Assembly (NCBI GenBank): GCA_021163265.1
Contig: JAGGXC010000023.1
Location: forward strand, 6,378 to 70,377
Source: a bacterium
Lineage (GTDB): Bacteria; Patescibacteriota; Minisyncoccia; Minisyncoccales; JAGGXC01
Direction: 5' to 3'
Length of the DNA stretch: 64,000 nucleotides
The translations under genes were made by a program, and so were the position numbers. Below are positions 1 to 49,737 of the stretch, piece by piece. How positions within the stretch are numbered: position 1 is the stretch's first letter; every line of letters starts with the position of its first letter. The notes beneath the pieces were generated by a model that was not told the origin of the DNA, searched no databases, and worked only from the letters and a program-made list of their open reading frames with translations.

Positions 1-955
1 ATCTCTTCTCCTCAAATGCTCCAAGAGGACCTGCCCAAAGAATAGTTTTTGCCTTTCTCACAATCTCCGAATAAAGCTCTATAGTATCTGGTCCTATATC
101 ATAGACCTTTTCTTCTTTTCTAATAGTTCCGAGAGCTGCTGCTCTTTGATAAAGCCAGTCGTCTTCCAGCGATAAAAGTACATCTTTTGGTAAGTGAAGA
201 GAAGTATCTGTTAAATCAAATTTCTTTATAGAATCAAGAAGCTTACTATCTGGATAAGGTCTACCAATAAGAATATCTTTAGCAATCAGAATAATTTCGG
301 AAAGAAAACCATTCAATAAAACAGAATCAGACATTTCTAAAAGGCGCGGAAGAAATTTTATCTTTGACAACTTCTTCCCTCCGATAATGATTACCAATGG
401 CCTTCTGGGTTTATTTTTTATCTTGGAAAGATTCTCTATTTCCTTACGTAATAAAAATCCTGCAAAAGAAGGAAGAATTCTGGGAATACCTACAATTGAA
501 GCATGTTCGCGATGAGATACAGAAAAGGCATCGTTTACATATATCTCCCCTAATCGTGAAAGCGCTTTTGCAAACTCAAAATCATTTTTTGTTTCTCCTT
601 TATAAAATCGGAGGTTTTCCAAAAGAACTATCTCTCCACCCAAAAGGGAATTAACTTTCCTTTCTATTCTTCTGCCTATACAATCAGGAAGAAACCGAAC
701 TTTCTTTTTAAGTATTCTTGATAGAACGGCAGCTATAGGTCTAAGGCTATATTTCTTATCTTTTCCTGAAGGCCTTCCTAAGTGACTAATTAAGATTACT
801 TTAGCTTGCTTTCTTTTAAAATATCTAATAGATGGCAGAATGCTTTTTATTCTGAAATCATCAAGCACTTTCCCTTCCTTATCTAAAGGAACATTAAGAT
901 CTACTCTTACTAATAATTTCTTATCTTTAATTTTTATTCCCTCTATATTATTCAT
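1..955 (-). CDS. pgk: Phosphoglycerate kinase, N-terminal about 318 aa. The gene continues past the window start (C-terminus missing).
   Basis: I translated the minus strand from the ATG at 955-953: MNNIEGIKIKDKKLLVRVDLNVPLDKEGKVLDDFRIKSILPSIRYFKRKQAKVILISHLGRPSG. This has the classic PGK N-terminal motifs RVDxNVP and SHLGRP. The ATG overlaps the stop codon of the upstream ORF by 1 nt. It is absent from the ORF track because no stop codon lies within the window. Confidence 0.85.
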   Translation of the reverse strand, partial: MNNIEGIKIKDKKLLVRVDLNVPLDKEGKVLDDFRIKSILPSIRYFKRKQAKVILISHLGRPSGKDKKYSLRPIAAVLSRILKKKVRFLPDCIGRRIERKVNSLLGGEIVLLENLRFYKGETKNDFEFAKALSRLGEIYVNDAFSVSHREHASIVGIPRILPSFAGFLLRKEIENLSKIKNKPRRPLVIIIGGKKLSKIKFLPRLLEMSDSVLLNGFLSEIILIAKDILIGRPYPDSKLLDSIKKFDLTDTSLHLPKDVLLSLEDDWLYQRAAALGTIRKEEKVYDIGPDTIELYSEIVRKAKTILWAGPLGAFEEKR

Positions 956-2598
956 TAATTTTCCGAAGTAGTTTTATTTGAATCTTCTTGTGTTTTATCT
1001 TGTGGAGATTGTTGAGAAGAAGAATGTTTAAGTGACTCTTCAAGAATTTTTCTTAATTCTTCCAGGCTCACCTCTTTTCGAGGCCGAGGTATTGTTTTTT
1101 GTACTAATGGACGCGACATCGAAGATTTATCTTGTAAAGATTTTGCTGGCAATCCTTCTGGAGTAATTTCTCCCTTCTCGATCTTTTTAAGACAAGATTT
1201 ACAATAAACTGGACGCTTGGGATCAGGCTGAAAAGGAACTTTTATATTCTTTTTGCAAGCAAAACATTGAGCATCATAAAGCACAGGGAGTGTTACAGAA
1301 GAAGTTGAAGTTGTTGGCGAAATAAGATTCTCTGACCAACGTGCGATTTTCTCCTCAACAATCCTGCGAGGAGTTCCATATCTTTGACGAGAAATCTTAA
1401 TAATTTTGTCTTTACTAGAATGGGCGGGCTTCTCAAAAGGAGGAAGGGTTTCGGCAGAAAATGGTCTTCCTGCTACTCCATCTATCATTAATTTAACGTA
1501 AATATTGTATTTTGCCAGATTTACTAAATCTTGAGCTGAAAACTCAGGAGCAAATTCTTTCTCCAAAAACTCAGCATCCTCGGCACCAACTCTAAAAGAA
1601 ATTAAAGTTCCTATATTACCAAATACTGCATCGCGCACTTTTTCTTCCATTTGAGCAATATACTGATGTCCAATAATAAGACATAATCTATATTTTCTTG
1701 CTTCAGACAAGATGCTTACAAAACTCTCAGTAGCAAAATTCTGAAATTCATCAACATAAAGATAGAAATCTTTTCTTTCTTCCTCAGGAATTGTAACACG
1801 CTGCATAGCTGCTAACTGTAACTTAGTAATAAGAAGTGCTCCAAGAAGACGAGAAGCATCCTCTCCTATCATTCCTTTAGAAAGATTTAAAATTAAGATC
1901 TTTTCCGTATTCATCACTTCACTCATATCTATTGTTGACTTCACTTGACCAATAATATTTCTGATTAAAGGAGCTGAAATAAACTGACCTACTTTATTTT
2001 GAATTGCAGCTGTAGCTTCGATCTCATATCTTTGAGTATAACGAGCAAATTCTTGCACCCAAAAAGCCTTTACTACGGGATCAGTAATCCTAGAAACTAT
2101 TTTCTCTCTATAAGCAGGATCAGCTAACATCCGGTTAATCCCCAGAAGAGTAGAACCAGGATATTCCAACAAAGCTAAAATACAATTGTTTAAAATATAT
2201 TCCATTCGAGCTGACCAGACATCGGGCCATATTTTTTTAAAAACTCCCATCAATCCTCCTGCCACAAGATGGCGATGCGCCAAATCTACTTTTTCCATTA
2301 CATTAAAAGCAATTGGATATTCCAAATCAGCAGGATTGAAATAAATCACATCGTTGATCCTTTCTGGAGGAACAAAATCAAGAAGCCTTTCTGCAGCCTC
2401 TCCATGGGGGTCTACAAAAGCTACCCCTTTTCCGCTTTGAATATCCTGAATAGCCATATTCTCCATCAATGCAGTTTTCCCCATCCCAGTCTTTCCAATA
2501 ATATACATATGTCTCCTTCTATCATCGGTTTTAATTCCGAACTTCTTTTTAATATTACGAAATGTAGTTCTGGCAAAAAAGTTAACTTCTTCTGACAT
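955..2598 (-). CDS. Soluble P-loop ATPase resembling type IV coupling proteins (VirD4/TraD/TrwB-like), with a C-terminal zinc ribbon and a low-complexity tail.
   Basis: Walker A motif IIGKTGMGKT near the N-terminus. Walker-B-like YLYVDEFQNF. The segment SEARKYRLCLIIGHQYIAQM...GNIGTLISFRVG resembles the TraG-D_C / TraM-recognition region of coupling proteins. CFACKK-N17-CKSC is a CxxC...CxxC zinc ribbon, followed by an S/Q/K-rich tail. There are no N-terminal transmembrane helices. Confidence 0.55.
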   Translation of the reverse strand: MSEEVNFFARTTFRNIKKKFGIKTDDRRRHMYIIGKTGMGKTALMENMAIQDIQSGKGVAFVDPHGEAAERLLDFVPPERINDVIYFNPADLEYPIAFNVMEKVDLAHRHLVAGGLMGVFKKIWPDVWSARMEYILNNCILALLEYPGSTLLGINRMLADPAYREKIVSRITDPVVKAFWVQEFARYTQRYEIEATAAIQNKVGQFISAPLIRNIIGQVKSTIDMSEVMNTEKILILNLSKGMIGEDASRLLGALLITKLQLAAMQRVTIPEEERKDFYLYVDEFQNFATESFVSILSEARKYRLCLIIGHQYIAQMEEKVRDAVFGNIGTLISFRVGAEDAEFLEKEFAPEFSAQDLVNLAKYNIYVKLMIDGVAGRPFSAETLPPFEKPAHSSKDKIIKISRQRYGTPRRIVEEKIARWSENLISPTTSTSSVTLPVLYDAQCFACKKNIKVPFQPDPKRPVYCKSCLKKIEKGEITPEGLPAKSLQDKSSMSRPLVQKTIPRPRKEVSLEELRKILEESLKHSSSQQSPQDKTQEDSNKTTSEN

Positions 2599-2620
2599 GT
2601 TTCTTTTATTATAATATACA

Positions 2621-3892
2621 CTATTCTACAGGTAACCCCGGAGGAGCTTCTTTTTTCTTTGCTTCTACTCTAGGAACAGTAGGAGCTGGAGCAACAGTTC
2701 TTCCAGGAAAATGATAAAGAGTTGCAAGCTCTTCGGTGTTTAATACAAATGTCCCTCCTGGTTTAGGAAAGAGAGGAGAAAATCTCCTTTTGTACCTCAA
2801 AAATATTGCTCGCTTTTTTGCATAAGTTCTGCTTTCTTTCATAAACCACTGAACTTTTGGAAGCGTTTTCGTCCACGGCTTCAATCCATTAAGATTTTCA
2901 GTAGATACATTCTTGAAAAATCCATAAAACATACGTGATTTCGGTTTAAAAAATACATCCTTTTTGGCTATGTATAAACACCTGATATTTGTTACATATC
3001 CAAACTTACCAATCTTTTCTTCGATTGCTTTTACCGCTTCTCTCTCTCCAGGCGTAAGCTTCATTTCCGGAGGAATAAGCTCTTGCTTTTTCTCTTCTGG
3101 TTTTTTGCCTGGAACTTTTCCGCTAATCAACACTTCTGCTGCTTCTCTAAAAATAGAAGGTACTGGCTCTACTTTCTTCTCACGGTGAACTAATTTATCT
3201 ACTAGCTCTTTTCCCTCCTTTTGCCACGGCACCTCTTCCCTTATTGGTTTTATTATAATCTGAAGCCACATATACTCATTTTCTCCGATACTTGCCATGC
3301 TTTCCAAGAGATTAGAAAGAGGGTCAAGTCTCTTTTCTTCTTTAGTCTCTTTTTCATCCTCAAAATATCTATATGTTTTTATAGGATAAGGATCAGGTTT
3401 GGTGGTAACAAAATCAAAACCAAAAACATCCCATTCATCATTAGGGATGTTGTAAGGAACAAGATTGGTGTAATCCTCAACCTTGACAATCTCAGCATCA
3501 GGATATTGAGAATAAATATTTGATTCTATTACACTTCGAAATGATTCAGGAGCTCTGATAAAAAAGCGAACTTCTCCCTCAAGACTTGCTATCTCTAAAG
3601 CAATAGAATATTGAAACTCTCCTTGTAACCACACTTCTTTCCAAGAAAAGACATCATGCACTCCATGAAACCCTGCTATCACTTGCTCCATTGCCTTGAT
3701 AGGCTTTGTTACTTCTCTGGGGATCCTCACCTCCAAAACTATCTTTTTTACCCCTGAATCATACTGCTCACTTTTGTAAAATTTCCAGAAAAAAAGAAAG
3801 TGGCGGTAAAGCAAAAATGGCAAAGGCAACCACCACCAGTTTTTAACAACTAACCAGAAATTGTTTAAGAAAAAATAAAAGTCCATCTTCAC
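2621..3892 (-). CDS. Hypothetical membrane-anchored protein, co-operonic with the ATPase.
   Basis: The N-terminus is strongly hydrophobic and Trp-rich (FLNNFWLVVKNWWWLPLPFLLY) and likely forms transmembrane helices. The rest is a charged soluble region. It lies 22 nt upstream of the ATPase gene on the same strand. I recognise no family for it. Confidence 0.45.
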   Translation of the reverse strand: MKMDFYFFLNNFWLVVKNWWWLPLPFLLYRHFLFFWKFYKSEQYDSGVKKIVLEVRIPREVTKPIKAMEQVIAGFHGVHDVFSWKEVWLQGEFQYSIALEIASLEGEVRFFIRAPESFRSVIESNIYSQYPDAEIVKVEDYTNLVPYNIPNDEWDVFGFDFVTTKPDPYPIKTYRYFEDEKETKEEKRLDPLSNLLESMASIGENEYMWLQIIIKPIREEVPWQKEGKELVDKLVHREKKVEPVPSIFREAAEVLISGKVPGKKPEEKKQELIPPEMKLTPGEREAVKAIEEKIGKFGYVTNIRCLYIAKKDVFFKPKSRMFYGFFKNVSTENLNGLKPWTKTLPKVQWFMKESRTYAKKRAIFLRYKRRFSPLFPKPGGTFVLNTEELATLYHFPGRTVAPAPTVPRVEAKKKEAPPGLPVE

Positions 3893-3897
3893 TTCTT

Positions 3898-4926
3898 TTA
3901 TGCCTCTCTGAGAATATATCTTCCTTGAGAGTCTTTAAGAAAATACTCCTTATTCTGTAAATTTAATAAAATAGTATTTTCTTTTACTAAACGTTGGGAA
4001 AGAACTTTTTCTACTATCTCATTCTTTGAAAGAGGACGTTTCTCTTGCTTGAGAATTTCTACAATAATATCTTTGACTTGGCCCGGAATATATCCCCATT
4101 CCCGAAGAGCATAAATCCCTCGACCAACTAAAACAAAACGAGAATCTCTTATAAGTTCATTATGTACCGTTTGAGGAAGAGCAGGTTTTCGAGAATTAAG
4201 ATTAAGCTCATTAATTTTTTCTGCTACCACTGTAAAATGAAGAGGACGACCAGTCTTTTTCAAAACTATATAAGCTTTATCTTTTATGCCTTTGGGATAT
4301 ATTTCAGGCCATTTTTTTAATCCAAACAATCCCTCATAATTTTGTTCTATTTCTTTAGATATCTCTAAATAAGAAAGAAGGGCAGCGGAAGATATTGTTT
4401 TTAGATTTCCGAAGTCTTTCTTAAAAATTTGCGAGATCTCTTTTGAAGAAAGAGGTCTTCTTTCTTCTTCAAGCTTCGTTATAAAGCTACCTATAATCTC
4501 TTTTGCCAGATCTACTGATTTTGCATCAATAGTCCATAAGGGATACAAATCATCGGTTTCAGGAAACCTTAAAAAAGGCTCACCTAAAGCAAGCCAGAAA
4601 AGAGCTTGATTTTGAAGTTGCGGAGAAGGAAATTGCGATAACAATAAATCTTCTCTTTTCAAATTACCATGCTTTCTAAAATGCTGAACAAAATAACGAA
4701 ATATTTTCTTATAAGCAGGTTTCTGAATTTCTTTTTTTATGAAACTAAGTCCTGCTTTCTCAATCTGACGAATTCTTTCCCGACACACTCCATAACTTTT
4801 TCCGATAGACTCTAAAGTTTCTCTTGTCTTTTCTTCTAACCCAAATCTTCTCTCTATTACATTTCTTATTCTCTCCGGCAAGTTATTAAGAAGATTGCGA
4901 TGAAGATGCTGAAAAGGAATATCCAT
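3898..4926 (-). CDS. Helix-turn-helix protein with an N-terminal sigma-70 region-4-like domain.
   Basis: LESIGKSYGVCRERIRQIEKAGL matches the sigma-70 region 4.2 HTH signature (xTRERIRQIE). The C-terminal part (FVLVGRGIYALREWGY) looks like a winged-helix domain. The gap to the downstream ORF is 5 nt. Confidence 0.45.
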   Translation of the reverse strand: MDIPFQHLHRNLLNNLPERIRNVIERRFGLEEKTRETLESIGKSYGVCRERIRQIEKAGLSFIKKEIQKPAYKKIFRYFVQHFRKHGNLKREDLLLSQFPSPQLQNQALFWLALGEPFLRFPETDDLYPLWTIDAKSVDLAKEIIGSFITKLEEERRPLSSKEISQIFKKDFGNLKTISSAALLSYLEISKEIEQNYEGLFGLKKWPEIYPKGIKDKAYIVLKKTGRPLHFTVVAEKINELNLNSRKPALPQTVHNELIRDSRFVLVGRGIYALREWGYIPGQVKDIIVEILKQEKRPLSKNEIVEKVLSQRLVKENTILLNLQNKEYFLKDSQGRYILREA

Positions 4927-4988: not shown

Positions 4989-5882
4989 TCAAGATTTCTT
5001 TACCCAACTCAGCAAGAGCAAAGAGGCAAGACATATAGAGGAATAAGTACCCAATGTAATACCTAAAATCAAAGCAAGACTAAAATACTTTAAAGCAGAA
5101 CTTCCTAAGAAGAAAAGTGCAAAAAGAACAAATAAAGTAGTAAGTGAAGTACTTAATGAACGTGAGAGTGTTTCATTAAGGCTTTTGTTAATTACATCTT
5201 GAAAAGGAAGGTTAGTTCTAATAAGATTTTCTCTTATTCTATCAAAAATTACCACTGTATCATTCACGGAATAACCAAAAACGGTTAACAACGCAGTAAC
5301 AATAGGAACGGTAATCTCTACTCCATAAAATTTACCAAGGAGAGCAAAGACTCCAATAGGAATTAATACATCATGAAACAAAGCAATAAGAGTAGCCACG
5401 CCATATTGCCAAGAACTTACAGGATAAGAAACTTTGCGAAAAGCAAAAGTCACATAAAACATAATCGAAAGCAAAGCTAAAATAAGAACTATTACAGTCT
5501 TTTTTCTTACCTCCTCTCCTACTATAGGTCCAACAAGTTCAAACCTTGCTTCTTCTAAATCTCCTTTCTGTTTCAGGATATCCAAAATCTTCTGATGCAT
5601 TTCTTCTGATATCGCCTGGGTTCTCAAGATGATTCCCTTATCACCTTTTGGCTGAACAGAAAATTCTTGAAGATCTAACCTGGAAAGATCTGATCTAATC
5701 TCTTGAACATTCGGGTTAATATCTTTATAGTCTACCTCAATAATGCTACCTCCAACAAAATCAATTCCCCATCTCAGGCCAAATAAGATCAAGGCAATTA
5801 TGCTAGCCAGAACCAATATTCCCGAAAGGCTAAAAAATAATTTTTTGTGTTTTACAAAGTTTATTTCCATAGTATTTCCCAT
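4989..5882 (-). CDS. secF: Protein translocase subunit SecF.
   Basis: Multi-pass membrane protein with the typical SecF layout, including FVGGSIIEVDY, an Ala/Leu-rich C-terminal transmembrane bundle and FDRIRENL. It sits immediately downstream of secD. The true start may be the internal Met (MEINF..). Confidence 0.9.
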   Translation of the reverse strand: MGNTMEINFVKHKKLFFSLSGILVLASIIALILFGLRWGIDFVGGSIIEVDYKDINPNVQEIRSDLSRLDLQEFSVQPKGDKGIILRTQAISEEMHQKILDILKQKGDLEEARFELVGPIVGEEVRKKTVIVLILALLSIMFYVTFAFRKVSYPVSSWQYGVATLIALFHDVLIPIGVFALLGKFYGVEITVPIVTALLTVFGYSVNDTVVIFDRIRENLIRTNLPFQDVINKSLNETLSRSLSTSLTTLFVLFALFFLGSSALKYFSLALILGITLGTYSSICLASLLLLSWVKKS

Positions 5883-7156
5883 TTCTCAAAACGAGTATTA
5901 ACAAAACATCTTAAGAAATTCTTCGTAATAAAAATAGCAGAGAATAAACTTATCAAAATACCCAATCCGAGAGTAAGAGCAAAACCCTTTACAAAGCTGC
6001 TACCAAGCCCAAATAAAATTAAAGCTACAATCAGAGTGGTAACATTACTGTCTCTGATCGAGGGCCAGGCACGGGAGAATCCATCTTCAATTACTCTCTC
6101 AAACGGTTTCTCACTTTTCCTTTCTTCTCTCATCCGGGAAAAAATTAAAACATTTGCATCAATTGCCATACCTATGGATAAAATAAAACCAGCAACACCT
6201 GCTAGTGTAAGAGTGACAGGAATAAATTTAAAAATTGCCAAAGCAAAGATTACATAAATGATCAAAGAAAGAGAAGCCAACACTCCAGGAAGTCTATAGA
6301 AAATAATCATAAAGATTATTATTGCCAAGAAACCTATAATTCCTGCCTTCAAGCTTTCCTGTAAAGAAATAGCGCCTAGTGTAGGACCAACAGTTTCTCG
6401 CGAAATCAACTTTATAGGCACAGGAAGAGCTCCGGCACTTAAATTACGAGCAAGTTTCTGAGCTTCCTGAAGTTTGAAATGACCACTAATTTGAGCTTTG
6501 CCTCCAGAAATCTTTTCTCTTACCACAGGAGCAGAAATTAATACATTATCAATATATATTGCTAAGGGTTTATTTATATTTCTTGAGGTAAGATCTTCAA
6601 AAATTTTTGATCCTTCCTTATCAAATTGCAAAGAAACCACTGGTTCATGAGTAGTAGGATTGATCTTGACCTCTGCTCTTTTTAAATAACGACCATTAAG
6701 TTCTGTTGGTTGAAAAAGCTCATCAATCTTCATCTCTCCGGACTCGATTTTATCCTGATTCTGCTCGATAAGTTCGTCATAATTTGGTTTAGGTTCTCTA
6801 AACTCAAGATATGGTGTCTGACCAATCATTTTTATAGCTTCATCAATATTCTTTACCCCGGGCAATTCTACTATCAAACGCCAATTGTTAGCAATTTTTT
6901 CCGTTTGAACTATCGGTTCTCCAACACCAAAAAGATTGACCCTTCTCTCTATTACATCTCTCAATCCTTCCATAGTTGAGCTCCAATCATTTTGATCGAT
7001 TTTGGATAAATCCGCTTGATAAACAAGGTGGCTTCCTCCTTGAAGATCAAGACCTAACTTAAAAGAACGAGGAAAGAGAATCGATAAATCAAACAGCGCA
7101 CAGATAACAACTATCCCTAAAATTCCAACCAAAATTAAATAACTCTTTATCTTCAT
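5861..7156 (-). CDS. secD: Protein translocase subunit SecD.
   Basis: GLDLQGGSHLVYQADL is the SecD signature GLDLxGG. The periplasmic domain and the C-terminal six-helix domain (SIGMAIDANVLIFSRMREE) are also present. The gene overlaps the secF start. Confidence 0.9.
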   Translation of the reverse strand: MKIKSYLILVGILGIVVICALFDLSILFPRSFKLGLDLQGGSHLVYQADLSKIDQNDWSSTMEGLRDVIERRVNLFGVGEPIVQTEKIANNWRLIVELPGVKNIDEAIKMIGQTPYLEFREPKPNYDELIEQNQDKIESGEMKIDELFQPTELNGRYLKRAEVKINPTTHEPVVSLQFDKEGSKIFEDLTSRNINKPLAIYIDNVLISAPVVREKISGGKAQISGHFKLQEAQKLARNLSAGALPVPIKLISRETVGPTLGAISLQESLKAGIIGFLAIIIFMIIFYRLPGVLASLSLIIYVIFALAIFKFIPVTLTLAGVAGFILSIGMAIDANVLIFSRMREERKSEKPFERVIEDGFSRAWPSIRDSNVTTLIVALILFGLGSSFVKGFALTLGLGILISLFSAIFITKNFLRCFVNTRFEKWEILWK

Positions 7157-7160
7157 AATA

Positions 7161-7811
7161 TTAAATAGAAGTTAAAAGCACCGACACAATACCTACTAAA
7201 AATATCCCGTCAAACACCCCTGCTCCCCCGATAGAAACCATCCCAAAAGACGCTTTTCTTATTTTTGGCAAATTCATTAAATCAGCTCCAATAAGTGTTC
7301 CCAAAACTCCGGAAATAAAAGCAAGAGGAGAAGCAAAAGAGGGCATTAACAGATAAGCAAAAAGGGCAGAGAAAATAGGAGGAACAAAAGCAGGAAGAAT
7401 TATTCCTTGACCAGGAACAATCCGAGAAAGAAAATAACAGACTATTGTCATTAAACCTATACCTATTAATGCTGGCTTTAAAGGCACATTTAACAAAAGA
7501 TACAAAGAAATAATAATTGGAATAACTGCTCCCCCTAAATTTATAAATACGCCTTCGTATTCTATTTCGTTTCTCGAGAGTAAACCAAAAAAATAACTCC
7601 TTCTTACCAAAACTGCCTTTCTTTTTGTTAAAGGAATATTTACTACAGATCCTATCAAAATTAAAAAAAGAGTCAAGAAAGCAACCTCTGGAGAAAAACC
7701 AAGTTTTTCAAAACTAAAACTTGCTAGATGAAAAAATGTCAAAAAAAACAAAAGTGGAAAGAGTAAAAACAAAAGCAGCAAAAAAAGACATCCTAAAGGA
7801 ATAAAAACCAT
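7161..7811 (-). CDS. Integral membrane protein, possibly of the DUF1614 family.
   Basis: Roughly six hydrophobic segments, plus INLGGAVIPIIISLYLL and SIGGAGVFDGIFLVGIV motifs. The family assignment is from memory only. Confidence 0.45.
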   Translation of the reverse strand: MVFIPLGCLFLLLLFLLFPLLFFLTFFHLASFSFEKLGFSPEVAFLTLFLILIGSVVNIPLTKRKAVLVRRSYFFGLLSRNEIEYEGVFINLGGAVIPIIISLYLLLNVPLKPALIGIGLMTIVCYFLSRIVPGQGIILPAFVPPIFSALFAYLLMPSFASPLAFISGVLGTLIGADLMNLPKIRKASFGMVSIGGAGVFDGIFLVGIVSVLLTSI

Positions 7812-7819
7812 AATGATTT

Positions 7820-8422
7820 CTAAAAAAGGAGATTAGAAGTAATAAACACCTCAATCAAAGCTGAAAAAAATAAAATAATTAATAGTCTGATAAATAAAGT
7901 AAGCCCTAAATTAAGTTCTTTTACAATACTAACTTCCTTATTAAATATCTTTCTTATTACTGTCCATCCAATTTTTAATCCTATCGCAGAAAAAATCAAA
8001 AAACAAGGAATCTCAAGAATTCCATGAGGAATAATACCTGTAAGGAAATAAGAAAAAGAGGCTTGCTTCAAAGAGAAATTAGCCAAAATACCTAAAATCT
8101 CACCGTTATTCAATAAAGCAATTAACGGAAAAATCCCAAATAGCAAACCTGACAAGATCACAAACAAAGAACTAAGGCCATTTTTTAAAAAAATAGAAAG
8201 CGTCTGAAGAATCTTGTTTTGATGTAAAAGAGGCTCATACGTCTGGCGAATTATCAAAATAAGTTCTTTTGCTTGATCAGGATAAAACTCAGCAAAATAG
8301 TATCCCAGAAAAATACCAACAATAAAAATAACTATTGCCCCCAGAATATAAGGAATAAGAGTTCTTAAATAAAGATACAAAAAATATCTTTTTAGGAAAA
8401 TGATGATTCTTCTTCTATCCAT
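7820..8422 (-). CDS. SpoIIM/DUF95-family membrane protein.
   Basis: NGLSSLFVILSGLLFGIFPLIALLNNGEILG and GIIPHGILEIPCFLIFSAIGL match the SpoIIM-like pattern. I chose the internal start MDRRRIII at 8422, which leaves only an 8-nt overlap with the secA stop. The ORF track extends the reading frame to 8479. Confidence 0.5.
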   Translation of the reverse strand: MDRRRIIIFLKRYFLYLYLRTLIPYILGAIVIFIVGIFLGYYFAEFYPDQAKELILIIRQTYEPLLHQNKILQTLSIFLKNGLSSLFVILSGLLFGIFPLIALLNNGEILGILANFSLKQASFSYFLTGIIPHGILEIPCFLIFSAIGLKIGWTVIRKIFNKEVSIVKELNLGLTLFIRLLIILFFSALIEVFITSNLLF

Positions 8423-10898
8423 ATTTTGGCCAGCAACATTTTTTGTATTTTTTTCCTGAACCGCAAGGACAAGGATCATTGCGACCAGGAGTTTGTCTTA
8501 CCTGACGATGATTTACAACTGTTCTTCGAAAATATTGAGGTGGCTGTGGAGACTCTTTTTTGTTTATTTCTATATTTAAAATGGAGTGAACAATAGCTTT
8601 CTCTATCGTATCCAAAAACTGCCTAAACAAACGGTGACCCTCTGTTTTATATTCTACCAAAGGATCCTGAGCTCCGTAAGCTCTTAAACGAACAGAATCC
8701 TTCAGATGATGTTCCATCATATATAAATGATCTATCCATAACATATCCATTGTACGCAAGGCAACAAACCTCATTATCTTTAACATATTTTCCTTTCCTA
8801 TCAGCTCTTCCTTTTTTTGATATTCATCTTTTGAATAGCCATGTCTTTCTATCATTTCAATTACTTTCTGTCGCAAATCGTCAGGAGTAGCTCTTAAAAT
8901 CTCTTTCCGTTTACGATAAAATGTTTCTCGATGTTTATTAAGCACGTCATCATATTCTAATAGATGCTTTCTTGCATCAAAATTCATTCCCTCAAGCTTT
9001 GACTGAGCCGCTTCAATTGCATTTGAGACCATCTTTGCTTCTATAGGTTGATCCTCGGGAATATTTAGTTTCTCCATTAATACTTTTAACTTTTCTCCTC
9101 CAAATATCTGCATAAGGTCATCCTCGAGAGAAACAAAAAACTGAGAAGAACCAGGATCTCCTTGTCTTCCTGCTCTACCTCTTAATTGATTATCGATTCG
9201 CCGCGCTTCATGTCTTTCTGTTCCTATAACATGAAGCCCTCCCAAAGCTCTCACTTTCTTTGCTTCTTCAGGATCTGGAGGATTTCCTCCTAAAATAATA
9301 TCCACTCCCCTTCCTGCCATATTAGTAGCTACAGTTACCTGTCCCAATCTCCCCGCTTGAGCAATAATCTCTCCTTCTCTTTCATGGTTTGTGGCATCTA
9401 AGACCTGGCAAGCAATCCCTTCTCTCTCCAATAGTCTTTTAATTATCCTGTTTTTTTCAATCGCCCCTTCTGTATGCTCTCTAGCAGCGAACACACCTGT
9501 TCCTATCAAAATTGGTTGACCTAGCGCATGACGTTTTTTTACCTCTTCTACTATAGCTTTCAATTTTCCTTTCTTTGTTCTATACACCCGATCAGGCAAA
9601 TCCTTTCTTATCATTGGTTTATTTGTAGGAACAGAAATCACTTCTAGATTGTAAACCTTATCAAACTCTTCAGCAGATGTAGCCGCTGTTCCTGTCATAC
9701 CCGCTAACTTTTCATACATCCGGAAATAATTCTGAAAAGTAATGGATGCAAGTGTCCGAGATTCAGGCTTTACTTCAAGACCCTCTTTTGCTTCCACTGC
9801 TTGATGAAGACCACCTGACCACCTTCTTCCAGGCATTAATCTCCCTGTAAATTCATCAACTATAATTACTTCCCCATTCTTTACAATATAATCCCTGTCT
9901 CTTTTAAACAAAACGCGAGCTTTAAGAGCAGCCTCTAATTGATGAATAGTAATAATATCACTCTTAGCCCAAGGATCAAAGCCAAGCTCCCTAATAATTC
10001 TTTCTTGCCCTTTTTCGGTAAAAGTAGGAATACGCATCTTCGCATCCATTACATAATCCTGATTTTCTTTAAACTGACTTATCAATCTAGCAAACCGATA
10101 ATACTTCTCTGTAGATTTCTCAGCAGGCGAAGAAATAATTAAAGGTGTTCTTGCTTCATCAATCAAAATAGAATCTATCTCATCAATTATCGCATAAAAA
10201 AAGCCTCTCTGGACCTCTTCCTCTGAACTATAAACCATGTTATCCCGAAGATAATCAAAACCAAACTCATTGTTTGTACCGTAGGTAATATCTGCTTGAT
10301 AAGCTTCTTTTCTGGTACAAGGACGGAGAAAATCTTCTACTACTTTAAAAGAACCTAGTTCGTCTCGGATTTTATCTTTCTCCTCATCTGGCTTTTTATA
10401 CTCCGGATCATAAATAAAAGACTGCTCATGATTAAGACAACCAACAGATAGCCCTAAATAATGATAAATCTGTCCCATCCATACAGTATCTCTTCTTGCT
10501 AAATAATCATTTACTGTAACAAGGTGAACACCCCTACCTGTGAGAGCATTCAAATATAAAGGTAATGTAGCAGCAAGGGTTTTACCTTCACCTGTTTTCA
10601 TTTCGGCAATCTTTCCCTGATGAAGAACTATACCTCCGATGAGTTGACAATCAAAATGTCTCTGACCTAAAGTCCTTTTCGCTGCTTCTCTTACTACAGC
10701 AAATGCTTCAGGTAGAACATTATCAAGAGATTGGCCTTTTTTAATCCTTTCTTTAAACTCAAGTGTCTTTTTTCTTAGTTCTTCTTGTGACAAACGCTCA
10801 AAGTTTTTCTCTAAACTGTTAATCTTCTCAACATAAGGATAAATACTTCTAAGATACTTTTCGTTGGCATCGCCAAATATTTTATTTAAAATTCCCAT
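8415..10898 (-). CDS. secA: Preprotein translocase ATPase SecA.
   Basis: Full-length SecA domain order: DEAD-like NBD1 (GEGKT), preprotein cross-linking domain, NBD2, helical scaffold, and the C-terminal zinc-binding tail CPCGSGKKYKKCC. Confidence 0.95.
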   Translation of the reverse strand: MGILNKIFGDANEKYLRSIYPYVEKINSLEKNFERLSQEELRKKTLEFKERIKKGQSLDNVLPEAFAVVREAAKRTLGQRHFDCQLIGGIVLHQGKIAEMKTGEGKTLAATLPLYLNALTGRGVHLVTVNDYLARRDTVWMGQIYHYLGLSVGCLNHEQSFIYDPEYKKPDEEKDKIRDELGSFKVVEDFLRPCTRKEAYQADITYGTNNEFGFDYLRDNMVYSSEEEVQRGFFYAIIDEIDSILIDEARTPLIISSPAEKSTEKYYRFARLISQFKENQDYVMDAKMRIPTFTEKGQERIIRELGFDPWAKSDIITIHQLEAALKARVLFKRDRDYIVKNGEVIIVDEFTGRLMPGRRWSGGLHQAVEAKEGLEVKPESRTLASITFQNYFRMYEKLAGMTGTAATSAEEFDKVYNLEVISVPTNKPMIRKDLPDRVYRTKKGKLKAIVEEVKKRHALGQPILIGTGVFAAREHTEGAIEKNRIIKRLLEREGIACQVLDATNHEREGEIIAQAGRLGQVTVATNMAGRGVDIILGGNPPDPEEAKKVRALGGLHVIGTERHEARRIDNQLRGRAGRQGDPGSSQFFVSLEDDLMQIFGGEKLKVLMEKLNIPEDQPIEAKMVSNAIEAAQSKLEGMNFDARKHLLEYDDVLNKHRETFYRKRKEILRATPDDLRQKVIEMIERHGYSKDEYQKKEELIGKENMLKIMRFVALRTMDMLWIDHLYMMEHHLKDSVRLRAYGAQDPLVEYKTEGHRLFRQFLDTIEKAIVHSILNIEINKKESPQPPQYFRRTVVNHRQVRQTPGRNDPCPCGSGKKYKKCCWPKYG

Positions 10899-18113: not shown

Positions 18114-18599
18114 CTATAATCTTATATAAGCTGGACCTTCTCTTTTATATTCTTGCTGAATAATCTTTTTGACCTCCTCTATATTTCTTGGGGTATATAT
18201 TTTAATATTGGGCAAAGGTTTAAGAATCTGAACATCCTCATCATCTTCAATATTGTGAGTAAATCCCAGAAATTTATAATACTGGTAACCACCAACCGCT
18301 ATAATCTTTACGTTTGCATTATGATAGCAAACATCGTCTCTTAATTGCTCAAAACATCTCATAATGGCAAAGGGAATAATGCCGTAAACATAAGGCTTTT
18401 TCCCCATTTTTGCCAAACCTGCGGCAACTCCCATATAAGTTTGTTCTGTAATTCCACAGTTAAAGTACTGTTTGGGAAATTTTCTCTCAAATTCTTCAAA
18501 CAAATTAAAACCTGTGTCGTCATTAAGCAACACTATGTCTTTATCGTTATCAGCTATCTTTATTAATTCTTTAACGAAGATCTCTCTTAGCTCTCTCAT
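18114..18599 (-). CDS. Transketolase C-terminal-subunit-like protein. It is truncated: the pyrimidine-binding domain only.
   Basis: GITEQTYMGVAAGLAKMGKKPYVYGI and AVGGYQ motifs of the transketolase Pyr domain. The protein is 161 aa where about 310 aa is usual. Confidence 0.65.
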   Translation of the reverse strand: MRELREIFVKELIKIADNDKDIVLLNDDTGFNLFEEFERKFPKQYFNCGITEQTYMGVAAGLAKMGKKPYVYGIIPFAIMRCFEQLRDDVCYHNANVKIIAVGGYQYYKFLGFTHNIEDDEDVQILKPLPNIKIYTPRNIEEVKKIIQQEYKREGPAYIRL

Positions 18600-19326
18600 A
18601 GAGTTCTGGGGTTAGATTATAATAATGCCATTCGACTTTATTTTCGGCAAAAGAAATACCTTTGCCTTTTATGGTATGACATATAATTATATGAGGCCTG
18701 CCTTTTACCTCTATAGATTCCAGAATAGTTTCCCTCAACTCTTCTGTATTATGACCGTCTACTTCTTTTACATCCCATCCAAACGAATTCCACTTGTCTT
18801 TCAGCGGTTCAAGATTAAGAACCTCATTGGTTCTTCCGAATGCCTGAAGTTTATTATAATCGACAAGTACCATCAGATTATCTAATTTATGATGGGAAGC
18901 AAAAAGCGCGCTCTCCCAAGTAGTCCCACAATCCATTTCGCCATCGGAGAGTAAGACGAAAATCCTTCTTCTTTTATCTGCTAAAGCCATACCAATTGCA
19001 ACAGGTAGTCCGTGACCGGCTGAACCCAATGAGTGTTCAACTCCAGGAACACTATGATGCACAAGTCCCCAATACTTTGAATCAACCTCATAATAATTCT
19101 TATATAAATCGTCCCAATCAATAATCCCCTTCTCTGAAAGCACAGAATACAAAGCTGCTGCCGCCCACCCTTTGCTTAATAAAAATTTATCTTCCTCTCT
19201 CATAATATTAAAATAAAGAACTACCAAAATCTCAATACAGGACATACATGAGCCCAAATGTGCCGCCTTATGTCTGTAAAGCAAATCTATTACTTTTCTT
19301 CTGATTTTTTTGGCTATCTCATTCAT
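18571..19326 (-). CDS. Transketolase N-terminal subunit (ThDP-binding).
   Basis: HLGSCMS, GSAGHGLPVAIGMALA and the GDGEMDCGTTWES-type ThDP motif (SDGEMDCG). Confidence 0.75.
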   Translation of the reverse strand: MNEIAKKIRRKVIDLLYRHKAAHLGSCMSCIEILVVLYFNIMREEDKFLLSKGWAAAALYSVLSEKGIIDWDDLYKNYYEVDSKYWGLVHHSVPGVEHSLGSAGHGLPVAIGMALADKRRRIFVLLSDGEMDCGTTWESALFASHHKLDNLMVLVDYNKLQAFGRTNEVLNLEPLKDKWNSFGWDVKEVDGHNTEELRETILESIEVKGRPHIIICHTIKGKGISFAENKVEWHYYNLTPELYERAKRDLR

Positions 19327-28270: not shown

Positions 28271-29155
28271 CTAATACCAGGAACTTAAATCTCTATTTAT
28301 CAATTTTTCCAATTTCTCAATATCCTTTCTAAAGATACCTCTTAAATAATTCCTAACTTCTTGAGTCAATTCCGGTCTATTATCCAAATGACATTTCCTA
28401 GAAGGTTTCTGGCTAAGACGATTTATCTTTCTTAGGATATAAACTCCAAGACCACTCTGACTTAAAAATTCATAAATCACTCTAAATACAGGACTTGATT
28501 GTCTTTTTTGAAAAAAATGACGAATCATAGCTGCTTTTGCTTGAAGAGTTCTATCTCTAAGGTCTTCTTTCTTAGATTCAAGATATTTCTTATGTAAAGA
28601 GAAGGGAACAAAGTTCTCTTCCACATCTAAAAATTTAAACAATTTTTGACAAACTTGCAAGGGATCTTTAACAATATCCTCATAAATAATAATAAAGATA
28701 TTATTTCTTGGAAATTCTTTATAATATTGAGAAAGAAATGAATAATAAAGGCTTCCGTTAATAATTGATTTTATCTCTCTAACAACTTTCCCAAGAGGAT
28801 ATTTATTCCTAATACTAGGAGGATAGGACTGAAGATAGTCAGAGTATACGCGTTCTATTGGATTCCTTAAAGAACATATTAATTTTACCTCAGGATTATG
28901 TGCCTTAATCTTTTCTATCACCTCAGGATGATATACATACATAGGAGTAAATTCTCCTTTAATTTTTTCTCCTTTGCAGTGTTTAAAATAAGAACTGTAC
29001 GGCTTTATTCCTATATCTTTTCTCAAGAAAAAGTAGGTTTCTTTTGGTTCTGACATACAAATTTGAGGATGTTCTTTTAGGCAGTAATAAATCCACGTAG
29101 TAGCGCATCGTGGCGCACCGATCCCAATAAAATCAATTTTAAATATCGATGTCAT
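28271..29155 (-). CDS. Sulfotransferase-family protein.
   Basis: IGAPRCATTWIYYCL (5'-PSB-like) and SLRNPIERVYSDY (3'-PB RNPxDRxxS-like motif). Confidence 0.6.
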   Translation of the reverse strand: MTSIFKIDFIGIGAPRCATTWIYYCLKEHPQICMSEPKETYFFLRKDIGIKPYSSYFKHCKGEKIKGEFTPMYVYHPEVIEKIKAHNPEVKLICSLRNPIERVYSDYLQSYPPSIRNKYPLGKVVREIKSIINGSLYYSFLSQYYKEFPRNNIFIIIYEDIVKDPLQVCQKLFKFLDVEENFVPFSLHKKYLESKKEDLRDRTLQAKAAMIRHFFQKRQSSPVFRVIYEFLSQSGLGVYILRKINRLSQKPSRKCHLDNRPELTQEVRNYLRGIFRKDIEKLEKLINRDLSSWY

Positions 29156-30501
29156 AACTTCTGTAGTATTCTCCTGATTTTCTTTAAGACAGGAAAACGC
29201 GTTATAGCTGTATCAATGAAGGAATATTTACTTAATTTTAAATAGATAGAAACATCTTTAGGAATACTTTTTTCTTTTTCTTTTCTTTTCTTTAATTCCT
29301 CAATATTGTTTATCTTCGGCTCATCTTTGAGATTACTGAAATAAACATTTTTCTCTTCTAGCTCCAATTGATATACTAGAATTTTAAATAGTTTTCTAGG
29401 AGAAACATCACTTAAAAAATTATTGCCATAAATAAACCTGAATTTGTGAAAATTAGCAAGAGGTGGTAGAACAGGATATCTCATATCTCTTAAAGCATTA
29501 TAATATTTATATTCAGGAATAAGATTAATTACATTCCTTGCTAAAACGGAAGGTAAATTCATATGAGATCCATGTACTCCAATGATAGAATCTGCTCTTT
29601 TATACTCTTCTATCCATTTCTTTTCTAATTCTAAATTAAATTTTTCCTCTCTGAAGTCTATAATATCTTTTCTAAATTTTTCTTTCTTTCCTAAACCACA
29701 CAAAACAAATCTTATGTTCTTGTAATAATCCTTTAAATAAGTAAACAGTTTTTCAATATTTCTTTTCTGAAGCCAAGGTGTTAACCCCCATGTTCTTCCG
29801 TCTTCTCTATAAGAAAATACAATTGATTTTGTCTTATTTTGAGAAGATATTCTTCTCCGAAGAATAGGAAATAATGAAATGTCGTAAGAAGTGGGATGAA
29901 AGGAATAAATGTTCGAAGCAAGGTATACTCTTTCCTTATTATCCACAATGCTATGTATTTTCTTATTAATTGCAGAGTACCATTTCCGATATTCGCGAAA
30001 AGGTAGATAAAATAATAAGAGCTCAGAGACACCTTCGGGAACAAGATGCTGCAATTGATAAGGAATCATAAGACATATCCCAAAAGTTTCCCTAAATTTT
30101 TTGATATAACGAGCACAATCAAGCAACGCCCAAATCGAATGACCGTAACATCCATCTAGACAATTAACCAAGATAATATTCTTGCTCTCCTTGAAAACCT
30201 TATGAGTAATTTTTATTTCTTTCTCATTCTTTTTTTTATAAGATTCAACCATTTCTTCCGCCCAATCCTTTCTCCCTGCTTCTTTTATTTCTAAACTCTC
30301 TTTGTCTATCGTAGCTTGATAAGCAAACCCAAGACGTGCAGGAAGATCAGAAAGAAATTCTTTACCGCAGCTTTTGCATTTAAACTCGACTATATTTCTC
30401 ATGCCAACAATAAAAAAATTTTTAATCAGTATTTCTGATCCACAGAGAGGACATCTATAGTAAGAAGCATTTTTATTTATATCGGGTTTTATCTCTAGCA
30501 T
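29152..30501 (-). CDS. Hypothetical protein with an N-terminal zinc ribbon (CPLCGS..CKSCGK). Possibly glycosyltransferase-like.
   Basis: CxxC...CxxC at the N-terminus. The remainder has no signature I recognise. The gene is embedded in the glycan operon. Confidence 0.4.
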   Translation of the reverse strand: MLEIKPDINKNASYYRCPLCGSEILIKNFFIVGMRNIVEFKCKSCGKEFLSDLPARLGFAYQATIDKESLEIKEAGRKDWAEEMVESYKKKNEKEIKITHKVFKESKNIILVNCLDGCYGHSIWALLDCARYIKKFRETFGICLMIPYQLQHLVPEGVSELLLFYLPFREYRKWYSAINKKIHSIVDNKERVYLASNIYSFHPTSYDISLFPILRRRISSQNKTKSIVFSYREDGRTWGLTPWLQKRNIEKLFTYLKDYYKNIRFVLCGLGKKEKFRKDIIDFREEKFNLELEKKWIEEYKRADSIIGVHGSHMNLPSVLARNVINLIPEYKYYNALRDMRYPVLPPLANFHKFRFIYGNNFLSDVSPRKLFKILVYQLELEEKNVYFSNLKDEPKINNIEELKKRKEKEKSIPKDVSIYLKLSKYSFIDTAITRFPVLKKIRRILQKL

Positions 30502-30504
30502 CTT

Positions 30505-31284
30505 TTATAAATTAGATATAATTTTACTATGAATAAGTTTATTAGAAGCAATAAGACCATTAATATTTTCAAATGGTTCTCTCCCATACAGAAGCATCTT
30601 TCCCTTTAGATCAGTAATTCTTCCACCCGCTTCCTCCAGGATAATCTCAGGAGCACAAGTATCCCATTGACAAGTCTTCTTACTAAAATTTATATAACCA
30701 TCAGCTTGACCCTCAGAAATCATCGCAAGCTTTAGTCCAATACTTCCTTTCTTTGTATAATCTACATTATTTTTTTTTAGAAATTCAGTCTCTTCTTCTG
30801 ATAAATGACTTCGACTAACAACAAATTTAGAACAAAAGATGTCTGAAATTTCCGAAACTTTGATTTTTTTAATATAACCTTTCTGCTGAAGAAAAGCCCC
30901 TTTTCCTTTCTGGGCAAAGTATAATTTATCTAATATTGGACAATAGACTACTCCTTTCACCGGTTTTCCCTTTTCTACTAATCCTATCATCACAGAGAAC
31001 TCACCGGTTCTTTGAAGAAAATCGTTTGTGCCATCGAGTGGATCAATAATCCATAATTTTTCTCTTTTTGTTTCTACAAATCTATCTCTGCTTTCCTCTG
31101 ACAGAATTCCGTAACCGTATCTTCTAAGAACAGAGAGAATAATTTGCTCTGAAGCAAGATCTGCTTCAGTCACCAATGAACTATCTTTCTTGGTATAAAC
31201 TTTAAAACTGCGGGAGTAAAATTCTAGTATTTTTTCTCCGGCTTTCCTTGCTAGATTAATAATTTCTTTTAATTCTTCATCCAT
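30505..31284 (-). CDS. 3'(2'),5'-bisphosphate nucleotidase (CysQ-like, inositol monophosphatase superfamily).
   Basis: LWIIDPLDGTNDF (the DPxDGT metal-binding motif) and the WDTCAPEIILEEAGG region typical of the IMPase/CysQ fold. Confidence 0.7.
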   Translation of the reverse strand: MDEELKEIINLARKAGEKILEFYSRSFKVYTKKDSSLVTEADLASEQIILSVLRRYGYGILSEESRDRFVETKREKLWIIDPLDGTNDFLQRTGEFSVMIGLVEKGKPVKGVVYCPILDKLYFAQKGKGAFLQQKGYIKKIKVSEISDIFCSKFVVSRSHLSEEETEFLKKNNVDYTKKGSIGLKLAMISEGQADGYINFSKKTCQWDTCAPEIILEEAGGRITDLKGKMLLYGREPFENINGLIASNKLIHSKIISNL

Positions 31285-48225: not shown

Positions 48226-48267
48226 TACTATTATGACGCAAAAATTATCTTTTTGTTACACCTAAAT

Positions 48268-48777: not shown

Positions 48778-48826
48778 ATTCTAAAGCATAGGAAATAGGA
48801 CATTATGTCCTATCATAAGCATTGTC

Positions 48827-49690: not shown

Positions 49691-49729
49691 AAATAAAAAA
49701 GAGAGTCAAAGTATTTATCTAAACTCTCT
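49688..49729 (-). terminator. Rho-independent terminator after the LTD protein gene.
   Basis: On the minus strand, AGAGAGT, a 16-nt loop and ACTCTCT, followed by TTTTTTATTTTT. Confidence 0.5.
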
Positions 49730-49737
49730 AACATAAA

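Follow-up and report, generated by a model that had tools for sequence, protein, structure and literature searches.

A split, DUF8128-bearing relative of VirD4/TrwB coupling proteins encoded between secF and pgk in a Patescibacteria chromosome

Homologues of VirD4-type type IV coupling proteins (T4CPs) have already been found widely in Patescibacteria. Quinonero-Coronel et al. 2025 (PMC12102498) count 5,713 of them in 2,918 of 3,035 genomes (∼96%), and the existence of orphan copies in this phylum is thus not new. Gene-level data are available for Candidatus (Ca.) Southlakia epibionticum, of the class Saccharimonadia, for which the tables of Wang et al. 2023 (PMC10633639) list SEML1_0294 (349 aa, with Sigma70_r4 at 27-72 and HARE-HTH at 225-283) as essential and place SEML1_0293 (921 aa, with TrwB_AAD_bind at 402-719) directly downstream; both genes are flagged as "core" and "Patescibacteria-enriched." In Sulfolobus, DNA import requires CedD, a VirD4-like ATPase whose gene lies away from the other ced genes (PMC11823120). 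Here we analyze a 64,000-nt stretch of contig JAGGXC010000023.1 (the window; coordinates refer to the whole stretch), in which two adjacent genes encode the halves of a single VirD4/TrwB-like motor protein, preceded by a gene for a helix-turn-helix (HTH) protein. The three genes of this cassette are as follows.

955-2598, minus strand, ATG start: 547-aa soluble motor ATPase of the TrwB/VirD4 family, the C-terminal half of the split protein
2621-3892, minus strand, GTG start: 423-aa protein with a predicted anchor and DUF8128 (PF26449), the N-terminal half of the split ATPase
3898-4926, minus strand, ATG start: 342-aa sigma-region-4/HARE-HTH protein

The co-directional genes lie on the minus strand between secF and pgk, with intergenic gaps of 5 nt (342-aa and 423-aa genes) and 22 nt (423-aa and 547-aa genes); these positions and both gaps had been given in an earlier note on this DNA, and all matched our re-check of the open reading frames (ORFs). 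The same note had treated the 423-aa protein as an accessory partner, whereas comparison with close relatives and with phage G, in which the two are fused, identifies it as the N-terminal half of the ATPase. The profile phrog_5156 (824 positions) matched the ATPase at 407-816 (1.6e-59) and the 423-aa protein at 74-312 (5.6e-11). Both halves are colinear on one chain in gp156 of Bacillus phage G (825 aa): hhalign paired its residues 31-315 with residues 67-402 in the 423-aa family at 97% probability (E 1.2e-10), and BLASTP paired its residues 381-751 with residues 33-386 of the ATPase (1e-40). An exhaustive search of 1.84 billion cluster representatives with the ATPase yielded 23,886 relatives, the best 150 of which were 34-69% identical over the matched stretches; in many of these 150 the motor starts at residue 300-460 of a 750-1130-aa protein. 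Residues 1-421 of the relative P0383 (956 aa) aligned with the entire 423-aa protein (32% identity, 2e-61), an alignment that takes in both its aromatic N-terminus and its LNTEELATLYHFP...LP.E motif at the C-terminal end, and residues 425-847 aligned with the ATPase at 64% identity. The predicted N-terminal membrane anchor, which in the window resides on the 423-aa protein and not on the motor polypeptide, is on the same chain in P0383. Precomputed annotations show many further fused PF26449 plus TrwB_AAD_bind forms in Berkelbacteria, Falkowbacteria, Gottesmanbacteria, and Saccharibacteria.

One genome per species was scanned, giving 592 confirmed relatives, and the best 80 loci, ranked by ATPase similarity, were analyzed. 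The 423-aa gene was directly upstream of the ATPase gene in 79 of the 80, that is, in all where it was detected, with a median gap of 28 nt. Retention of the split in 79 of 80 species-level loci shows a real gene fission and not an assembly error, and the thousands of homologue clusters found for each of the two proteins indicate that the genes are real. These alignments identify the 423-aa and 547-aa proteins as the halves of one VirD4/TrwB-like motor protein and the pair as a Patescibacteria-specific member of the coupling-protein family.

Within the 547-aa protein, the following features were located.

2473-2496, minus strand: Walker A sequence motif GKTGMGKT, aa 35-42
1903-2301, minus strand: all-alpha insertion, aa ∼100-232, with seven predicted helices, the counterpart of the coupling-protein all-alpha domain
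1744-1761, minus strand: Walker B region LYVDEF, aa 280-285, aligned with the TrwB Walker B region
1183-1281, minus strand: CxxC-x17-CxxC treble-clef zinc ribbon, aa 440-472 (zf_Tbcl_2 9.1e-11, TIGR04272 1.2e-10)
958-1182, minus strand: charged low-complexity C-terminal tail, aa 473-547, with a short conserved helix at aa ∼512-527

The assignment of the motor to the VirD4/TrwB coupling-protein family, and not to HerA or FtsK, is based on profile, sequence, and fold matches, in agreement with the earlier description of a VirD4/TraD-like ATPase. Three Pfam families exceeded their curated cut-offs: TrwB_AAD_bind (46.8 bits, cut-off 20.5), TraG-D_C (27, cut-off 22), and zf_Tbcl_2 (41.7, cut-off 27). 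DUF87 was borderline (24.6 bits against 23.2), and no FtsK_SpoIIIE Pfam match was found on the ATPase. In single-sequence and profile searches of the PDB, the only significant matches were TrwB (2.7e-6) and DotL (7e-4). Foldseek ranked Cagbeta and TrwB at the top with the ATPase model, HerA 15th, and VirB4 outside the top 50. A VirB4-type motor was likewise disfavored: P-loop_TraG scored below its cut-off (E 0.061, 12.4 bits against 25.8), TIGR00929 gave 12.4 bits against 643, hhalign against CPR (Candidate Phyla Radiation) VirB4 gave a probability of 9%, and no CagE_TrbE_VirB signal was found. The CedD equivalog NF053655 reached 32.6 bits against a cut-off of 600 and covered only aa 15-78.

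An all-alpha insertion in the nucleotide-binding domain is a mark of coupling proteins. In the predicted model, the helices between aa 106 and 215 had confidence (pLDDT) values of 70-88, and positions 11-289 of the TrwB_AAD_bind profile were matched. Across 46 homologues, Walker A residues G35, K36, T37, G38, M39, G40, and K41 were invariant and T42 nearly so; the Walker B stretch reads FYLYVDE (aa 278-284), with L280, Y281, D283, E284, and F285 invariant, and many other residues of the ATPase were also invariant, all catalytic residues being intact. The zinc-ribbon cysteines C445, C448, C466, and C469 were invariant in the same set. Among the relatives sampled, the CxxC-x17-CxxC ribbon occurred in unfused forms only. 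In a separate observation, the protein upstream of an unfused ATPase at another locus (L089:1-1656) bears a C-terminal zf_Tbcl_2 zinc finger, so that a zinc module can occupy either half. No hydrophobic segment was present in the 547-aa protein, and model confidence was low beyond aa 473, with pLDDT below 50 at aa 486-504 and 527-547; a protein without an anchor and ending in a zinc ribbon and a disordered tail, as had been described before, was thus recovered. More than 8000 homologue clusters were found for the ATPase; the best 120 matches were 67-99% identical, and those with names came from Nealsonbacteria, Parcubacteria, and the "Patescibacteria group," which assigns the window to a CPR bacterium.

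The 423-aa protein comprises a predicted membrane anchor and a cytoplasmic domain.

3752-3892, minus strand: aromatic, Trp-rich N-terminal helical hairpin, aa 1-47, predicted membrane anchor (AlphaFold2 helices at 2-19 and 23-47)
2624-3751, minus strand: predicted cytoplasmic DUF8128 alpha/beta domain, aa 48-423 (AlphaFold2 model)
2702-2743, minus strand: conserved LNTEELATLYHFPG motif near the end of DUF8128, followed by a PRVEAKK..PP.LP.E tail

Of the earlier description of a Trp-rich, membrane-anchored protein, the Trp-rich hairpin was borne out, at aa ∼4-40, and anchoring stands as a prediction: on the Wimley-White scale the octanol sum comes to -16.9 kcal/mol over aa 18-36 and the Kyte-Doolittle maximum is 0.78, so the N-terminal hairpin of the model would be an aromatic rather than a classically hydrophobic membrane anchor. 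Its WWWLPLPF motif is nearly invariant among homologues. At the other end of the protein, the PRVEAKK..PP.LP.E tail continues directly into the ATPase in fused relatives. The AlphaFold2 model (pLDDT 79.9, predicted template-modeling score 0.78) showed two N-terminal helices followed by alpha/beta domains.

Membership in DUF8128 was taken from precomputed PF26449 annotations on homologues 52-94% identical to the 423-aa protein, which was itself unmatched in the Pfam and NCBIfam libraries scanned, a Pfam set that did not contain PF26449. The earlier note had proposed looking for the 423-aa family elsewhere, and as PF26449/DUF8128 it is found widely; a literature search for DUF8128 by name found no paper. 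Foldseek placed seven chains of R388 TrwK/VirB4 at ranks 1-6 and 8 of the PDB search with the 423-aa model (probability 0.94-0.97 for ranks 1-6 and 0.75 for rank 8; E 1.6e-3 to 1.2e-2), with query template-modeling (TM) scores of only 0.29-0.33; these were the sole high-probability fold matches in the PDB. These matches are therefore no more than suggestive of a VirB4-like DUF8128 fold. A sequence-level link between DUF8128 and VirB4 or TrsD was considered and dropped, since hhalign of DUF8128 against a CPR TrsD/TraC-like protein returned nothing beyond a 32-residue motif at 18% probability. As a side observation, the LNTEELATLY motif (2702-2743) is weakly similar to QLSTEQLIKLY at the C-terminus of that kind of TrsD/TraC-like protein (L087:6113-6778), which precedes a CPR VirB4 gene.

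The 342-aa protein carries two recognizable DNA-binding-type regions.

4744-4893, minus strand: sigma-70 region-4 helix-turn-helix, aa 12-61 (Sigma70_r4 5.1e-11)
4096-4284, minus strand: best-scoring HARE-HTH winged helix, aa 215-277 (Pfam)

The N-terminal sigma region-4 HTH had been recognized earlier and is what Sigma70_r4 covers. HARE-HTH matched over two stretches (4.1e-19), and the best PDB sequence matches were all to region 4 of SigA/RpoD. Only region 4 was found, sigma region 2 not being detected in this protein, and the NCBIfam sigma models were all far under their cut-offs. The RNA polymerase delta subunit model TIGR04567 gave 35.8 bits against a cut-off of 42, and the delta-subunit layout does not match because HARE-HTH lies in the C-terminal half of the 342-aa protein and an acidic tail is lacking. 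A literature search for HARE-HTH in Patescibacteria found nothing. SEML1_0294 is the probable counterpart of this protein, with the same pair of Sigma70_r4 and HARE-HTH domains and the same position; the order of HTH gene followed by DUF8128-T4CP gene recurs in two distant classes (Paceibacteria-type genomes and Saccharimonadia). The HTH gene was upstream of the DUF8128 gene in 76 of the 80 loci, and none was seen adjacent to the fused or otherwise related loci examined in other lineages.

The neighbors of the cassette are housekeeping genes, and secA, secDF, and pgk are present around it as had been noted.

4989-5882: secF, 5' of the HTH gene
5861-7156: secD, 5' of the HTH gene
955-953: pgk start codon (ATG), which shares bases with the ATPase stop codon (TAATG)

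The earlier note had suggested that the synteny of the trio be checked across related genomes, and we observed a colinear block in about 80 species-level Paceibacteria-type genomes: the order secA-(SpoIIM/DUF1614)-secD-secF-HTH-423aa-ATPase-pgk is held almost wherever the contig permits among the best 80 of 592 loci, with pgk 3' of the ATPase in 77 of the 80. Median identities across these loci, which were ranked by ATPase similarity, were 68% for the ATPase, 62 for SecA, 60 for SecD, 53 for SecF, 48 for the HTH protein, 45 for the 423-aa protein, and 42 for Pgk. No Pfam match to VirB4, a relaxase, or an integrase was found in the scanned window ORFs of at least 120 aa (61792-62442 lay outside the scan), in keeping with the earlier statement that conjugation genes are lacking, and a scan of IMG/VR with the ATPase found no close relatives. 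The DUF8128-ATPase pair is a vertically inherited chromosomal core gene of its lineage and not a mobile element. Both outcomes that had been named in advance as refuting a domesticated translocation module were looked at: HerA and FtsK were not the best matches, and the trio is neither sporadic nor integrase-flanked. That interpretation is partly supported overall, its T4CP-like and domesticated elements being the parts that stood. Between secA and secD lie genes for a DUF1614 protein (7161-7811), recurrent at this place in many related loci, and for a SpoIIM-like membrane protein (7820-8479).

The label "orphan," which had been attached to the cassette, holds for the window and not for the family. 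Two 728-aa anchor-less relatives with motors 51-52% identical to that of the window, P0335 and P0340, are encoded divergently beside PrgI/TraC-like/VirB4 clusters of type IV secretion system (T4SS) genes; they represent two different loci, one of which was seen on two contigs. PMC12102498 reports VirB4 from 2,417 of the 3,035 Patescibacteria genomes in its dataset (80%), so a T4SS is likely to be encoded elsewhere in the source genome. Other relatives have dnaX, or RuvC/YebC, as neighbors, and the genomic context of P0300 is that of SEML1_0142, a second Ca. Southlakia paralogue. In one lineage, tandem B-type and A-type DUF8128-T4CP paralogues are convergent with secF-secD (L088:1899-7784; L092:2456-8429), a second and differently oriented association of the family with secDF. 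In neighbor-joining trees, the SEML1_0142-like forms were separated from the window clade, the T4SS-adjacent forms, and the fused anchored forms, across deep nodes that lack support.

Some features of these wider loci were recorded separately. A small ORF (107-159 aa, without a Pfam match) lies just upstream of a divergent DUF8128-T4CP gene in four loci (L083:7651-7995, L085:7519-7998, L088:1556-1879, and L092:1996-2433), and the divergent genes of L083, L088, and L092 were termed B-type. The Ca. Southlakia ORF at the equivalent position, SEML1_0141, is listed as essential in the tables of PMC10633639. Directly upstream of gp156 in phage G is gp155, a VirB4-like ATPase (P-loop_TraG, AAA_10), the pair lying at L081:2196-6338. 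More distant DUF8128/T4CP-like members include SPO1 gp27.4 with its relatives and an ORF of a Microcystis phage.

On this evidence, we favor the view that the pair is a split DUF8128 coupling protein that would act as a membrane-tethered hexameric translocase serving a CPR type IV system encoded elsewhere, and we assign it a probability of about 0.6. The two halves would rejoin non-covalently at the junction that is covalent in the fused relatives, and the motor would assemble into a TrwB-like hexamer, which the aromatic hairpins would anchor to the membrane. Nucleoside triphosphate hydrolysis would then drive the engagement and movement of a polymer substrate, either nucleic acid or protein, with the zinc ribbon and tail possibly serving substrate or partner recognition. 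Its partner would most probably be the relaxase-less type IV secretion apparatus that the lineage encodes elsewhere on its chromosome. Cooperation with a T4SS is judged the likeliest setting because close relatives are encoded beside such systems.

Several observations weigh against this translocase assignment. The scanned window ORFs contain no T4SS genes, and PMC12102498 places only 148 of the 5,713 T4CP homologues near virB4 and finds these homologues in more genomes (2,918) than VirB4 (2,417). In the tables of PMC10633639, SEML1_0293 is non-essential although the Ca. Southlakia T4SS genes are essential, its normalized transposon-sequencing (Tn-seq) reads of 5817, 2940, and 1372 indicating slow depletion; the paralogue SEML1_0142 (1019 aa, between small ORFs and gyrBA) is essential. 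SEML1_0293 itself is a likely fused counterpart of the window pair from its architecture and gene order, not from alignment. The structure model of the ATPase is poor (pLDDT 63) because the alignment was too uniform, and the VirB4 likeness of DUF8128 combines a low TM score (0.33) and a borderline E value (∼2e-3) with the lack of any sequence-level signal, sequence and profile searches of the PDB with the 423-aa protein having returned no match. The loci had been picked by ATPase similarity, which biases the comparison in which the ATPase comes out as the best-conserved member of the block, and the deep nodes of the neighbor-joining trees (the branching of A-type, B-type, and T4SS-adjacent forms) are unsupported. 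Another reading is an exapted, T4SS-independent motor, in which the pair, alone or with the HTH protein as a DNA-binding adaptor, would be a membrane-tethered nucleic-acid translocase or remodeller, for instance handling chromosomal or incoming DNA or RNA at the membrane. Such a role is a serious rival because the genes are dispersed, are present in more genomes than VirB4 is, and, for the likely Ca. Southlakia counterpart, differ in Tn-seq phenotype from the T4SS genes, nearly all copies being far from virB4; PMC12102498 itself raises exaptation and calls it not excludable. The very strong conservation of the motor and its linkage to a DNA-binding HTH protein in two distant classes also fit. 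We nonetheless consider it possible but on balance doubtful: close relatives are encoded beside T4SS clusters, no channel-forming partner is apparent and the anchor is only a two-helix hairpin, essentiality in Ca. Southlakia holds for the HTH gene and not for the ATPase counterpart, so that they are not obligate partners, and the HTH gene is not beside the fused forms examined in other lineages. A narrower proposal concerns the direction of transport. By analogy with CedD, the DUF8128-T4CP motor could be an inward pump for host RNA or DNA working through a relaxase-less, pilus-bearing type IV apparatus, its zinc ribbon and tail gripping the polymer; this import reading is defined by the CedD precedent together with a 2026 preprint that describes host-RNA uptake by a Patescibacterium with the transporter not identified, and we regard it as unlikely.

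The remaining explanations have far less in their favor. A Sec-associated factor that aids SecDF/SecA-dependent export would account for the seat directly 3' of secDF; the secD-secF-HTH-423aa-ATPase order is kept in most of the 80 loci, and in another lineage (L088, L092) the fused ATPase gene is convergent with secF-secD. No T4CP is known to act with Sec. Colinearity extends equally toward pgk and secA, however, so the vicinity of secDF looks like general lineage synteny rather than Sec-specific evidence, and with pgk in place in 77 of 80 loci the adjacency was dropped as a functional argument; the fused forms of other classes adjoin gyrBA, dnaX, T4SS genes, or RuvC/YebC, and Ca. Southlakia has the HTH-ATPase pair with no SecD or SecF annotated in its tables. 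A function in export through Sec is therefore quite improbable. Little can be said, either, for a HerA/FtsK-type helicase or a defense ATPase (HerA-like or like mad8 of MADS) with an effector partner, to which a PADLOC mad8 match (2.4e-15), weak HerA matches, the marginal DUF87 score (24.6 bits against 23.2), and the HerA Foldseek rank of 15 had pointed: coupling proteins score higher in every search, no nuclease, Sir2, or other effector is found among the neighbors, the gene is a universal syntenic core gene unlike the patchy defense islands, and the tables of PMC10633639 list a canonical FtsK in Ca. Southlakia that is separate and essential. These comparisons, each won by T4CPs, largely refute that assignment. 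Last, the pair could in principle be what is left of a decayed prophage or integrated conjugative element: conjugative elements are where this protein family is best known, and the Bacillus phages G and SPO1 and a Microcystis phage have distant fused homologues. An identical chromosomal position in about 80 species-level genomes, strong purifying selection with all catalytic residues intact, surroundings without an integrase, relaxase, or att-like context, unremarkable GC content, and the lack of a close IMG/VR match make this the least credible account, and we rejected a mobile-element remnant on the conserved position, the conservation, and the absence of detected mobility genes.

A large part of bacterial diversity belongs to the Patescibacteria, which are without nucleotide, lipid, and amino-acid synthesis. 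How they obtain host macromolecules is a standing question, and a motor that is present in ∼96% of genomes and is more conserved than SecA across the 80 loci (selected by ATPase similarity) presents a concrete, testable candidate for a component of the uptake machinery. The window pair is a split, DUF8128-bearing, zinc-ribbon coupling protein inside the already reported Patescibacteria T4CP family. What is new is the N-terminal DUF8128 domain with its weak VirB4 fold matches, the division in Paceibacteria-type genomes between a predicted membrane subunit and a soluble motor with a zinc ribbon, and the linkage, seen in two distant classes, with a sigma-4/HARE-HTH protein whose Ca. Southlakia counterpart is essential. 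If an import role were true, it would explain a near-universal and unusually conserved "conjugation" ATPase in a phylum without nucleotide synthesis; if the VirB4-like N-terminal domain were truly joined to a coupling-protein motor, the protein would be an architectural intermediate of the two T4SS ATPase families. Should the pair simply recruit substrates in the usual way for the T4SS already known in Patescibacteria, our results would be a useful annotation refinement and not a discovery. The DUF8128-T4CP family is conspicuous and experimentally tractable.

The remainder of the AT-rich window encodes housekeeping functions, a large cluster for surface glycans, big surface proteins with LTD/PKD/fn3 domains, and an extracytoplasmic function (ECF) sigma module. 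Every one of the 49 ORFs with 120 aa or more runs on the minus strand, and cumulative GC skew declines steadily, so that positions 1-64000 resemble a single long co-oriented stretch, presumably the leading strand. A scan for promoters and terminators gave signals at or below the shuffled expectation, which says nothing on operon structure. The LTD proteins had been proposed as competence features; they proved to be big surface proteins of LTD/PKD/beta-helix type encoded next to an ECF sigma factor, and no tie to competence was found. Specifically, the region 47494-53997 holds the gene for a 1419-aa LTD/PKD/beta-helix surface protein alongside those for the ECF sigma factor, for a DeoR-HTH protein, and for a DUF5667 protein. 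At an unrelated locus (L089:3917-7949), a T4CP-like gene is directly followed by genes for an LTD/PKD protein and an ECF sigma factor. The surface-glycan cluster includes sulfate genes (28271-34438), namely a sulfotransferase (28271-29155), a CysQ-like protein of the inositol-phosphatase family (30505-31284), and a fused ATP-sulfurylase/APS-kinase (32798-34438); this combination of sulfate-activation and transfer genes is a hint that the envelope glycan of a CPR bacterium may be sulfated. Embedded among sugar-modifying genes is a split transketolase-like pair (18114-19326), with a thiamine pyrophosphate-binding N-terminal half (18571-19326) and a pyrimidine-binding half (18114-18599).

Among characterized systems, the T4CPs (TrwB of R388, VirD4, Cagbeta, DotL, and TraD) are the best sequence and fold matches of the window motor and share with it the P-loop motor of the FtsK-HerA superfamily, Walker A and B, the all-alpha insertion, and TraG-D_C. 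Their two-helix N-terminal anchor is also predicted when the window system is taken whole, but in the window it is placed on a separate polypeptide, with DUF8128 (∼375 aa) between anchor and motor. The window motor also differs in its C-terminal zinc ribbon, and its family is chromosomal, near-universal in the phylum, and seldom found beside virB4 or a relaxase gene. Linkage of a T4CP gene to T4SS and relaxase genes was not seen in the scanned window ORFs, whereas P0335 and P0340 adjoin T4SS genes. Neither the HAS-barrel and nuclease partner of HerA nor the FtsK_SpoIIIE and gamma domains of FtsK were found for the window ATPase. The resemblance to VirB4 (TrwK of R388) and to VirB3-VirB4 fusions is one of layout, the reassembled protein having a short membrane hairpin, an N-terminal alpha/beta domain, and a C-terminal P-loop motor in the same order; the motor matches coupling proteins instead, and the fold match of DUF8128 is weak (TM 0.33). 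CedD/TedD of Crenarchaeota belongs, like the motor considered here, to the VirD4-like ATPases, serves a domesticated, relaxase-less, pilus-bearing T4SS-like system, and is encoded apart from it, with some orthologues lacking a transmembrane segment (PMC11823120); similarity to the window protein is limited to the P-loop region, and import by CedD has been shown by experiment. SEML1_0293, SEML1_0142 (PMC10633639), and the Patescibacteria T4CP homologues (PMC12102498) have the same Pfam content as the window pair, and SEML1_0293 is likewise preceded by a Sigma70_r4 plus HARE-HTH gene; the two Ca. Southlakia proteins differ in being single chains (921 and 1019 aa) without a zinc ribbon. The N-terminal domain, the split form, and the HTH linkage are not mentioned in the accessible portions of these two papers. 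Phage G gp156, with PHROG 5156 and the SPO1 gp27.4-like proteins, is phage-borne, only ∼25% identical to the window proteins, and without an N-terminal anchor or zinc ribbon, but it carries DUF8128 and a T4CP-like motor together on one chain.

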